Shown here piece after piece: positions 437 to 6,065 of a stretch of DNA of 6,065 bases. The stretch lies in sequence record NC_007823.1; one strand, written 5' to 3'. Under the pieces are notes generated by a model. That model made no database searches. It saw only the letters and a list, made by a program, of their open reading frames with translations, and was not told the origin of the DNA. The first letter of the stretch is position 1. The number at the start of each line of letters is the position of its first letter. The stretch comes from Escherichia phage NC28. The position numbers and the translations under genes are program-made.

Positions 437-526
437 ATGGAAACTGTTGTCGGGAAATTTATTGCTTTGGCTGTTGTTGCTCTTATGCTGTATGGAATTG
501 CCCGTTTAATTCGGAGGTTCCCGTGA
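437..526 (+). CDS. Hypothetical small hydrophobic peptide (29 aa, METVVGKFIALAVVALMLYGIARLIRRFP): one predicted transmembrane helix with a basic C-terminus.
   Basis: ATG at 437 with GGAG (427-430) 6 nt upstream. Hand translation gives an uninterrupted hydrophobic stretch then RLIRRFP; stop TGA at 524-526. Too short to appear in the supplied ORF track. Confidence 0.38.
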   Translation: METVVGKFIALAVVALMLYGIARLIRRFP

Positions 527-3053: not shown

Positions 3054-3057
3054 TTAT

Positions 3058-3071
3058 GGGCCTTCGGGCCC
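3058..3071 (+). terminator. J-F intergenic GC hairpin GGGCC-TTCG-GGCCC followed by TTT; terminator-like (TJ) or mRNA-stabilising stem-loop.
   Basis: Perfect 5-bp GC stem with TTCG tetraloop read directly, followed by TTTAAGGA, whose AAGGA (3075-3079) is the SD for F at 3086. Confidence 0.55.
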
Positions 3072-3085
3072 TTTAAGGAAATCCA

Positions 3086-4369
3086 ATGTCAAACGTGCAA
3101 ACTTCCGCAGAACGTATTCCGCATGACCTTTCCCATCTGGTTTTTGATGCTGGCAAGATTGGTCGTTTAAAGGTTGTTTCTTGGACTCCTGTTGTTGCAG
3201 GTGATTCTTTTGAGCTTGATATGATTGGCGCAATTCGCCTTTCTCCGCTTCGTCGTGGTTTGGCTGTTGATAGCCGCGTTGACTTGTTTACTTTCTATGT
3301 TCCTCATCGTCATGTTTATGGTGAGCAATGGATTGATTTTATGAAAGCAGGTGTTGATGCTGCTCCGCTTGCACCTGTTACTTGTTCGCGTGGTTGGGAT
3401 AGCGCCCAGTATTTGGCTACAATTCCGTCCTCTAACCTGAAGGTTCCTAAGTTCCTTCATCAAGGTTATTTGAATATTTATAATAACTATTTTAAAGCTC
3501 CGTGGATGGATGATTTAACTTATGCCAATCCGTCTAATATGGAAGGTGAAGACGTTCGTTTTGGTGTTCGTGCGTGTAACTTGAAAACTATTTGGACTGC
3601 CCCACTTCCGCCGGACACTGAGACTTCTCATTCTATGGAGACTGAGACTAACTCTATTGATATCATGGGCCTTCAGGCCGCTTATGCTCAGCTTCATACT
3701 GAGCAGGAACGTGATTATTTCATGACGCGTTATCGTGATATTGTTAATGAATTTGGTGGTAGTACTTCTTATGATGCGGATAATCGCCCTCTTCTGGTTA
3801 TGCACTCTGAGTTTTGGGCTTCAGGCTATGACGTCGACGGCACCGACCAAAGTTCTCTCGGTCAGTTCTCTGGACGTGTACAGCAGACCTTTAAGCATTC
3901 AGTACCGCGATTCTTCTGCCCTGAGCATGGCACTATGTTCACACTCGCATTGGTCCGCTTCCCGCCGACCCATGAGATGGAGATGCATTACTTAGTTGGC
4001 AAGGAAGATTTAACCTATACTGATTTGGCTTGTGACCCAGCTCTGATGGCCAACCTCCCTCCTCGTGAGGTTAATATGTCTCAGTTCTTCCATTCTGGAA
4101 GTGCTAGTGCTAAGTTTAAGATTGCTGAAGGTCAATGGTATCGTATGCAGCCTGACCGTGTTGCTTTGCCGTATAACTATCTTGATGGTTTTCCGTTCTA
4201 TAGTGCGATTCCATCTGATGATATTAATCATCGTGTTCTGGTTAATACTGATAACTACGATGAGGTTTTCCAGTCTATGCAGCTTGCGCACTGGAATATG
4301 CAGACCAAGTTTAACTGCACCATTTATCGTAATATGCCGACCACTCGCGACTCTATTATGACCTCTTGA
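3086..4369 (+). CDS. F: Major capsid protein F (427 aa).
   Basis: Same length as phiX174 F and extensive identity to the recalled sequence (MSNxQTxAERxPHDLSHL…, FTFYVPHRHVYGEQWI, GYLNIYNNYFKAPWM, WTAPLPP, SIDIMGLQAAYA, SYDADNRPLLVM, ASGYDVDGTDQxSLGQFSGRVQQT, LPTTRDSIMTS). Confidence 0.97.
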   Translation: MSNVQTSAERIPHDLSHLVFDAGKIGRLKVVSWTPVVAGDSFELDMIGAIRLSPLRRGLAVDSRVDLFTFYVPHRHVYGEQWIDFMKAGVDAAPLAPVTCSRGWDSAQYLATIPSSNLKVPKFLHQGYLNIYNNYFKAPWMDDLTYANPSNMEGEDVRFGVRACNLKTIWTAPLPPDTETSHSMETETNSIDIMGLQAAYAQLHTEQERDYFMTRYRDIVNEFGGSTSYDADNRPLLVMHSEFWASGYDVDGTDQSSLGQFSGRVQQTFKHSVPRFFCPEHGTMFTLALVRFPPTHEMEMHYLVGKEDLTYTDLACDPALMANLPPREVNMSQFFHSGSASAKFKIAEGQWYRMQPDRVALPYNYLDGFPFYSAIPSDDINHRVLVNTDNYDEVFQSMQLAHWNMQTKFNCTIYRNMPTTRDSIMTS

Positions 4370-4375
4370 TTATGT

Positions 4376-4389
4376 GGGCCTTCGGGCCC
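4376..4389 (+). terminator. F-G intergenic GC hairpin GGGCC-TTCG-GGCCC, second copy of the J-F hairpin; terminator-like (TF).
   Basis: Identical stem-loop to 3058-3071, with similar flanks (TTATG upstream, C(C)TTTAAGGA downstream); the downstream AAGGA serves as the SD for G. Confidence 0.55.
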
Positions 4390-4406
4390 CTTTAAGGATG
4401 TTGATT

Positions 4407-4952: not shown

Positions 4953-5087
4953 AAGGCCACCGCACTCCTGGTTAGATGCCTGCCCAGTGTAGGGTGGACC
5001 GAGCCGTACGGAGATACCCGAGAAACTAGGAACGCGGAAGGCGTTAGCCGCCTTCCCTCCTGCTAAGCCCAAAGGAGACTTTCAGCT
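4953..5087 (+). promoter_or_regulatory. 135-nt structured G-H intergenic region; candidate terminator after G and/or complementary (-) strand origin (primase-dependent ssi). Strong hairpin at 5036-5056 (GGAAGGCG-TTAGC-CGCCTTCC); possible imperfect hairpin 4957-4997; palindrome CCGTACGG at 5004-5011.
   Basis: Hairpins read directly. The spacer is far longer than a terminator plus RBS needs, while the F-G spacer is only 37 nt. My recollection is that in G4 the (-) strand origin is in F-G and in alpha3/St-1/phiK it is in G-H. AAGGAG (5072-5077) is the SD for H. Confidence 0.35.
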
Positions 5088-6065
5088 ATGTTAGGTGCCG
5101 TTGTAGGTGGTATTGTTTCAGCCTTAGCTGGTGGAGCAGCTTCTAAGCTATTTGGTGGCAAGCCTGCCGCTCAAGCCGCCACTGAGTCCTCTGGCCTTTC
5201 TAATGGTCAAGGTGTTATTGGTATGGACCAAGATGCTGGTATTCAGTCAGCTATTCAGGGTTCGAATGTTCCAAATGGTCAGATTCCTGCCCCTACCCAG
5301 ACTGGTGGCGTTATGTCTGACGCTAAAAATATGATTAAGAATGCTGGTAAAGATTTGCTTGATGGTGTTATGACCGCTGGAAGTGACCGCATTAAGCAGG
5401 CATTGGTTGATAAATTGAGTGGTAATAATGCAAAACGACAAGGACAAGCAACCCGTGATTACTTGGCTTCGGCCTTCCCTGAGCTCAACCCGTGGGAACG
5501 TTCTGGAGCTGGTGCTTCCGGTGCCGGATTGGAATCTTCCGGTCAGGACCAACAAAAAGAGTTGATGCGTATGCAGCTGGATAACCAGAAAGATATTGCA
5601 AAGATGCAGATGGATAACAATTTGCAGATTGCTGGTATTCAGTCCGCTACATCTCGTCAGAATACTAAGGACACTGTTTATGCTCAGAATGAAATGCTTC
5701 AGTACAATCAGCGTGAGTCGCAGGCACGCGTTGAATCTATCCTCGCCAACACTAACCTTACGGATAAGCAGGCTACCCATGAAATCATGAGAATGGCTCT
5801 TACCCGTGCTCAGGAAACTGGTCAGCATTTGACTAACTCTCAGATTATGGCATTGGAGAAAAAGGTTTATGCAGAAATCGGAAAAATTAATCAAGATACT
5901 CAAAACGCTCGCTATGGTAGTTCTCAGGTTACTGCTGCGGCGAAAGATGTTACGAATATGATTACTGATGCCACCTCTGGTGCTGCTGATTGGGTTTCCC
6001 AGCAATGGAATTCCCTCTTTAAGGATGGTAAGTCTAATGGTATTCCCCTCAATACCAGAAAATAA
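5088..6065 (+). CDS. H: Minor spike / DNA pilot protein H (325 aa).
   Basis: AAGGAG (5072-5077) 10 nt before ATG 5088. Glycine-rich N-terminus (MLGAVVGGIVSALAGGAASKLFGG), then GIQSAIQGSNVPN, TRDYLAxAFPELNxWER, QKELxxMQLDNQK, IAGIQSATSRQNTKDxVYAQNEML, ENTNL, QNxRYGSS; C-terminal ...FKDGKSNGI...RK. All match recalled phiX174 H. Stop TAA is the last 3 nt of the window. Confidence 0.95.
   Translation: MLGAVVGGIVSALAGGAASKLFGGKPAAQAATESSGLSNGQGVIGMDQDAGIQSAIQGSNVPNGQIPAPTQTGGVMSDAKNMIKNAGKDLLDGVMTAGSDRIKQALVDKLSGNNAKRQGQATRDYLASAFPELNPWERSGAGASGAGLESSGQDQQKELMRMQLDNQKDIAKMQMDNNLQIAGIQSATSRQNTKDTVYAQNEMLQYNQRESQARVESILANTNLTDKQATHEIMRMALTRAQETGQHLTNSQIMALEKKVYAEIGKINQDTQNARYGSSQVTAAAKDVTNMITDATSGAADWVSQQWNSLFKDGKSNGIPLNTRK

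Follow-up and report, generated by a model that had tools for sequence, protein, structure and literature searches.

ORF2 of Escherichia phage NC28, a conserved and probably translated gene for a predicted small membrane peptide in the enlarged H-A region of alpha3-like phages

The Pf3 coat protein has an N-out/C-in topology, KdpF is a small membrane protein of E. coli of about 30 aa, and protein K of the Bullavirinae has membrane character. Together with the lysis protein E, these are the described peptides closest to ORF2, a frame of 29 codons in the genome of Escherichia phage NC28 (sequence record NC_007823.1; the window analysed here is the whole stretch of 6,065 nucleotides). By analogy, ORF2 would resemble peptides of the Pf3 coat and KdpF type in length class and in having one short helix with a basic cluster; it differs from them in that its core has only 15 uncharged residues and that it shows no similarity to the family profiles. 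Protein K is likewise a small, accessory product of the same phage family, non-essential and encoded in overlap with A and C, but its locus (2158-2319) is a different one, it has no sequence similarity to ORF2, and it is found in all Bullavirinae, whereas ORF2 is restricted to alpha3-like phages. Protein E shares with ORF2 a small hydrophobic N-terminal helix and the phage family; unlike E, ORF2 has one third of the length, lacks the C-terminal domain, and occupies a slot of its own instead of lying inside another gene. The first-pass annotation was right that this phage already carries E (PF04517, E=4e-20); ORF2 itself gave no match at E up to 1 in Pfam, PF04517 included. Its best PHROG matches (E=0.04-0.24) were to families of unknown function or to a "moron" membrane protein, not to holins or lysis proteins, and its neighbors are not lysis genes, as they would be in a lysis cassette, but ORF1 and ORF3. 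Neither ORF1, ORF2, ORF3 nor the peptide of an overlapping +1 frame had a significant match in Pfam, PHROGs, NCBIfam or PADLOC, the PADLOC defence and counter-defence profiles included. As judged from these profile comparisons, ORF2 is outside the E, holin and defence families. The roles suggested in the first-pass annotation, in lysis timing, superinfection exclusion or membrane potential, are conjectural, and none of these searches ties the peptide to E or to a family of lysis, holin or defence proteins.

The closest relative in the databases is an orthologue: in phage Lilleven, protein QBZ71503.1 occupies the same slot between a 122-aa ORF1 and a 58-aa ORF3 and is the same gene, and all three homologues are annotated there as hypothetical proteins. 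The alpha3 record M25640 carries annotated ribosome-binding sites that match the starts of ORF1, the +1 frame, ORF2, and ORF3. In the other phage records that match ORF2, nothing is annotated at that position. Rokyta et al. reportedly listed five frames in 2006, with ORF2 among them only as a possibility. Wichman and Brown (2010; PMC2935103) mention conserved frames, citing Rokyta et al. (2006), and a report from 2026 (PMC13029530) describes an alpha3-like phage with 11 coding sequences, of which only the standard genes are named. Our literature search returned no functional study of ORF2. ORF2 is not new, then: it has been noticed before and is uncharacterised.

The 6065 bases of NC28 make up the complete genome of an alpha3-like microvirus, in the genus Alphatrevirus of the Bullavirinae, and share 91.7% full-length identity with WA13 and WA45, and 83-90% with alpha3, phiK, St-1, and the ID and NC isolates. 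In the phages phiX174 and G4 the spacer between H and A is short. In NC28 the H-A region is enlarged to about 760 nt (bases 1-758; gene H ends at 6065 and gene A starts at 759), and in phage collections it was matched by alpha3-like phages only (25 records, 81-93% identity). ORF2 is the middle one of three tightly packed extra genes in this region, a setting that the first-pass annotation does not mention. We distinguish the following features in the region:

22-68, + strand: hairpin behind gene H, resembling the terminator T_H (dG -21.7 kcal/mol, z = -5.3)
65-433, + strand: ORF1 (122 aa), the upstream cistron, which shares its reading frame with ORF2
417-509, + strand: +1-frame ORF (MKLRSKSWKLLSGNLLLWLLLLLCCMELPV), overlapping the end of ORF1 and most of ORF2
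427-430, + strand: Shine-Dalgarno sequence GGAG of ORF2, within the last sense codons of ORF1 and six bases 5' of the ATG
437-526, + strand: ORF2, 29 codons plus TGA, encoding METVVGKFIALAVVALMLYGIARLIRRFP (ATG at 437, TGA at 524-526), open in 25 distinct sequences
458-502, + strand: hydrophobic core F8-A22 (FIALAVVALMLYGIA), a predicted membrane helix of 15 uncharged residues between K7 and R23
503-523, + strand: basic tail RLIRRFP, a predicted cytoplasmic anchor, whose codons contain the ORF3 Shine-Dalgarno sequence GGAGG (514-518)
523-526, + strand: overlap GTGA of the ORF2 stop and the ORF3 start, a junction of the translational-coupling type
523-699, + strand: ORF3, 58 aa, GTG start, the downstream cistron (dN/dS 0.08; Shine-Dalgarno GGAGG)
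696-725, + strand: sigma-70 promoter-like site TTGACA-18-TATATT (11/12 consensus matches)

The hairpin at 22-68 holds the Shine-Dalgarno sequence of ORF1 (AGGAG, 52-56) in its 3' arm and the ORF1 ATG under its outer stem; it is probably the equivalent of the T_H terminator and would also limit the translation of ORF1. The site at 696-725, just 3' of ORF3, is presumably the promoter of gene A and marks the downstream edge of the cassette. NC35 (L014/L041) has a 29-nt deletion, corresponding to 703-731 of NC28, by which both the spacer and the -10 box are lost from TTGACA-18-TATATT; since the -10 box ahead of gene A is lost, NC35 must express A differently.

The position and sequence of ORF2, its GGAG with a spacing of 6 nt, and the gap of 3 nt to the ORF1 stop (TAA, 431-433) all read as the first-pass annotation had given them. 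It had also pointed out that ORF2 is missing from the ORF track, and this absence is accounted for by length, since ORF2 is listed only when the minimum is set at 20 aa. Among 21 distinct sequences, the Shine-Dalgarno sequence is GGAG in 16, GGGG in three, and GGAA in one; in L048, a divergent member of the sample, there is only a weak GGAAG-like element ahead of ORF2. The run of about 18 consecutive hydrophobic residues that had been described is shorter in our hands, with 15 uncharged residues (F8-A22). On the Hessa scale its best windows of 15, 17 and 19 residues sum to -2.0, -0.3 and +0.8 kcal/mol, respectively, so that the core would make a short membrane helix, borderline to adequate by prediction. 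The charge is +3 in the RLIRRFP tail and roughly 0 in the N-terminal METVVGK. The layout, with a hydrophobic core and a basic tail, would suit a small single-pass membrane peptide, but the hydrophobicity itself is common by chance: of the 32 ORFs of 25 aa or more on the plus strand of NC28, 10 have a 17-residue window as hydrophobic as that of ORF2 or more so. Among the established genes of NC28 only E reaches that level; shifted frames are hydrophobic and free of stops because third codon positions are T-rich, and since equally hydrophobic windows are common in spurious ORFs of NC28, hydrophobicity alone is weak evidence for ORF2.

We collected 25 distinct sequences covering ORF2: 13 GenBank relatives, two IMG/VR contigs, Logan and ENA contigs (both located via ORF1 homologues), and two metagenome contigs located via a fully degenerate DNA pattern. 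The ORF2 ATG is present, and the frame open for 28-30 codons, in all 25, so that the conservation in relatives proposed as a check on the frame was indeed observed among these alpha3-like sequences; the count has to be read with the facts that the open frame is partly automatic, because the nucleotide sequence is highly conserved, and that frame conservation is confounded as a test, because the +1 frame is equally open everywhere. L048 keeps ORF2 even though its ORF1 DNA is only 61% identical, and there the junction is TAA-ATG without a spacer (0 nt). The peptide is 100% identical in WA13/WA45 and 85-93% identical in the other relatives. Residues 1-21 are nearly invariant, the sole changes being V5I, F8L, A12V, V13I, L16F, and I21V, while the tail occurs in eight forms that differ by substitution or indel (RLIRRFP, RLISRT, RLISRTLK, RLIDRTLR, RLINRTLR, RLVNRTLK, RLVDRILK, and YVTINRILK); each of the seven variants besides RLIRRFP retains two or more basic residues, and their net charge lies between +1 and +3. 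On the other side, the spacer at 434-436 is hypervariable (six variants), and conservation sets in exactly at the ATG of ORF2. Gene callers had called a gene of 29 or 30 aa at this position on four independent metagenome assemblies. Searches with tblastn returned 25 records at 85-100% identity, all alpha3-like, and no match in plasmids; the degenerate DNA pattern (all synonymous codons of residues 1-15) matched nothing in viral and metagenome collections but near-identical copies of alpha3-like type, and the DNA of the cassette had no match in 5,426 E. coli genomes. A separate observation concerns the codon for Gly6 (452-454), which is GGG in NC28 alone and GGA in the 24 other sequences; this change is silent in ORF2 and turns Glu into Gly in the +1-frame peptide.

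The order and spacing of ORF1, ORF2 and ORF3 are the same in all genomes compared. The ORF2 stop always lies at the ORF3 start: ATGA takes the place of GTGA in the variant lineages, and ID32 has TGA-AA-ATG. For ORF1, dN/dS is 0.07 over the N-terminal half and 0.34 over the C-terminal half, every metagenome contig has ORF3 called as a gene of 58 aa, and both ORFs show the usual excess of change at third positions; since ORF1 and ORF3 are under clear purifying selection (dN/dS 0.07-0.19 and 0.08, respectively), the cassette is coding. The relatives of ORF1 form 19 protein clusters, all on microvirus contigs of roughly 6 kb, and an HMM profile of ORF1 run against 1.84 billion proteins found microvirus copies only. 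The AlphaFold model of ORF1 is beta-rich (pLDDT 88.9) and had no significant fold match in the PDB. A query with the concatenated proteins of ORF1, ORF2 and ORF3 returned only ORF1 relatives; matches of 154 aa, which we considered as possible fusions of ORF1 with ORF2 in view of their common frame, proved to carry N-terminal extensions instead, and read-through of the conserved ORF1 TAA into ORF2 is unlikely. A minus-strand ORF at 415-702 was also discarded, since, where it covers ORF3, the wobble pattern agrees with the ORF3 frame instead of the minus-strand one. ORF3 contains a hydrophobic +1-frame ORF of its own (539/545-670), which is open in relatives, and the codon-position pattern of ORF3 is undistorted.

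We noted several other features of the genome in passing. Two stretches of gene A (1491-1590 and 1665-1750) are the only other non-overlapping coding stretches with third positions conserved like those of ORF2, and they may conceal internal signals, for instance the start of A* or the promoter of B. An invariant run at 1002-1033 resembles the viral-strand origin sequence. A GC hairpin of the GGGCCTTCGGGCCC type occurs in three copies (3056-3073, 3664-3681, and 4374-4391), two of them terminator-like, in the J-F and F-G spacers, and one within gene F. The G-H spacer (4953-5087) is long, GC-rich, non-coding, and highly conserved (58/66 columns are invariant in 4977-5042); presumably it is the primase-dependent complementary-strand origin of alpha3-type phages.

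With a three-periodic codon model trained on the established genes of NC28, the register of ORF2 scored +12.7 nats over the +1 register; windows from true genes averaged +15.9 and windows in a wrong register -25.8 under the same model, and 0 of 231 wrong-register windows reached +12.7. Against the gene reading, the dN/dS of ORF2 itself is only 0.32-0.38. Substitutions over 440-499 in 23 sequences comprise 10 that are synonymous in ORF2 and six that are non-synonymous. All six replacements are conservative (mean BLOSUM +1.5, vs -0.6 for all possible ones), the core accepts only V/I, F/L or A/V exchanges, and second codon positions vary in just one case of 23. Sorted by their effect in both frames, the substitutions observed among those possible (440-499, 23 sequences) are as follows:

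Non-synonymous in both ORF2 and the +1 frame: 0 of 99
Synonymous in ORF2 only: 8 of 46
Synonymous in the +1 frame only: 6 of 33
Synonymous in both ORF2 and the +1 frame: 2 of 2

It is thus established that ORF2 exists with its start context, that it is conserved and has the geometry of a coupled gene, that its codon composition is gene-like, and that it is under frame-specific constraint; these features suggest that ORF2 is a real gene, probably translated, for a small membrane peptide. We lean, with some reserve, towards the reading that ORF2 is a genuine translated middle cistron of a coupled accessory cassette whose product would be a single-pass inner-membrane peptide.

The codon-position pattern of ORF2 is odd. 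In 11 whole genomes only 4 of its first 25 third positions are variable, where 13-15.6 would be expected (binomial p 2e-4 to 3e-6), a deficit at the 0.7th percentile of 1378 control windows that is equalled only by the two gene A stretches; in 22 sequences 9/23 vary, vs 75% in the pooled neighbors (p=2.7e-4), and against ORF3 alone (56%) the contrast is marginal. Diversity is 0.124 at first positions and 0.063 at third positions (pi1/pi3 = 1.96), the reverse of all eight control genes. ORF2 is not simply a young or slowly mutating segment, which is ruled out by the periodicity together with first-position polymorphisms at intermediate frequency. The abnormal pattern implies that a second constraint overlies ORF2; with ORF2 as the primary gene, an overprinted +1 peptide would be the neatest, if unproven, candidate for the extra constraint on its synonymous sites.

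The ORF at 417-509, which the first-pass annotation does not mention, is possibly such an overprinted second peptide, or possibly a mere by-product of T-rich codons. Its ATG at 417 and its stop at about 507-509 (TAA, TGA or TAG) are kept in every genome, including L048; we did not retain the longer +1 ORF (252-509) as a unit, since its upstream boundary shifts from 87 to 378 among genomes. The D/E pair is a precedent for a hydrophobic +1-frame peptide arising from T-rich third positions, as the 417-509 frame would be to ORF2, although in the D/E overlap the third positions of D stay the most variable, unlike those of ORF2. Dual coding of the block 438-506, with ORF2 and the 417-509 peptide (MKLRSKSWKLLSENLLLWLLLLLCCMEFPV in most genomes) both translated and selected, would explain the frozen synonymous sites of ORF2: its abnormally conserved third positions are second positions in the +1 frame, its variable first positions are the wobble positions of the +1 ORF, and the excess of pi1 over pi3, opposite to the control genes, points the same way. 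Nearly all the V/I, F/L and A/V changes of ORF2 are synonymous in the +1 frame and its synonymous changes are non-synonymous there, the synonymous/non-synonymous ratio of the +1 frame is similar to that of ORF2, and the annotated site in M25640 would serve it. A logistic model, which is built on 16-20 substitution types only, gives each frame a separate penalty for non-synonymy (p = 0.0015 and 0.007; 1.5e-5 and 3e-4 with the larger set). Several observations tell against dual coding all the same. The accepted +1 changes are as radical as random ones (mean BLOSUM -1.25, vs -1.20 for all possible changes) and include L to P twice, W to L, S to L, C to S, and E to G, while the N-terminal codons at 426-436 change often and radically (R to W, S to L, K to N). 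The +1 Shine-Dalgarno sequence is weak (GGA), and it is GGC, i.e., absent, in NC28 and WA13/WA45; the +1 frame has the codon composition usual for a shifted frame; T-rich third positions automatically give the +1 frame of any gene a stop-free, hydrophobic reading; and the third-position deficit is no more than marginal when ORF3 alone is the yardstick. We regard dual coding as unlikely.

The geometry of the junctions would also suit a relay, in which ribosomes leaving ORF1 re-initiate on ORF2 and so reach the start of ORF3, the peptide itself having no function. ORF1 and ORF2 are 3 nt apart in NC28 and directly adjoin in L048, the overlap of the ORF2 stop with the ORF3 start survives seven tail variants, and the sequence of the tail varies freely. 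A pure relay has no need, however, of nearly invariant residues 1-21 with conservative replacements, and ORF3 owns a strong GGAGG, so that it does not depend on a relay; we consider this explanation improbable. Distinctly improbable is the reverse assignment, in which only the +1 peptide (417-509) is functional and ORF2 stays open passively through the nucleotide conservation that the +1 frame imposes. Variability over 438-506 is about 4%, 17% and 39% at the three +1 codon positions, the classical signature of coding, and 39%, 4% and 17% when the same columns are counted by ORF2 codon position, but codon composition strongly favors ORF2, conservation sets in at ATG 437 and not at 417, and the hypervariable spacer at 434-436 falls inside the +1 frame, which also tolerates radical changes and has a poor or absent Shine-Dalgarno sequence; furthermore, the tail variants keep the ORF2-ORF3 junction, which is irrelevant to the +1 frame. 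That the block is a non-coding cis-acting element of the DNA or mRNA, with incidental open frames, is highly improbable: 57/66 columns are invariant in 11 genomes, and in phiX174 the stretch between H and A contains cis-acting signals, but the block has three-base periodicity (0/15 variable columns fall on position 2, chance about 0.002), RNA and DNA folding of 415-545 is unremarkable (z about 0), the 66-nt window ranks only 789th of 6000 in genome-wide conservation, and we found no promoter or terminator consensus inside ORF2, no Rfam match, and no long-range repeat or complementarity for the block.

For the reading we prefer, that of a translated middle cistron with a membrane-inserted product, we infer translation, membrane insertion, topology and function from the features described above. 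The cassette would occupy the enlarged H-A region between the hairpin behind gene H and the promoter of gene A and run from ORF1 across the 3-nt gap to ORF2, and from there to ORF3, whose start overlaps the ORF2 stop, with translational coupling along the way. The product would be a single-pass inner-membrane peptide of 28-30 residues, with the near-invariant residues 1-21 as the functional helix and the variable basic tail in the cytoplasm; by the positive-inside rule, such a tail implies an N-out/C-in topology. The coding sequence of the tail may double as a site of ribosome hand-off to ORF3. Neither the phiX174 clade nor the G4 clade has the cassette, which marks it as accessory and not as a component of the core life cycle. 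As for how the peptide acts, the likeliest possibility would be that it binds or anchors a partner at the host inner membrane, possibly the co-translated ORF1 or ORF3 protein or a host membrane protein; a role as a lysis effector is less likely.

The Bullavirinae are textbook phages, usually with 11 genes, to which the alpha3-like clade adds about 700 bases, and these extra bases hold at least three conserved, coupled genes that are still omitted from recent annotations. The practical stakes are modest, as the cassette is accessory and ORF2 had been noticed before. If ORF2 is a real gene, it would lengthen the gene list of a model system and provide a small, easily handled case of a phage micro-membrane-protein. 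In addition, the unusual pattern of its codon positions puts it forward as a candidate member of a new overprinted pair; if dual coding were true, the best-studied phage family would have two more membrane peptides beyond K and E, in a miniature of D/E overprinting within a three-gene accessory cassette that includes a 122-aa member with a confidently predicted fold and no known relative.
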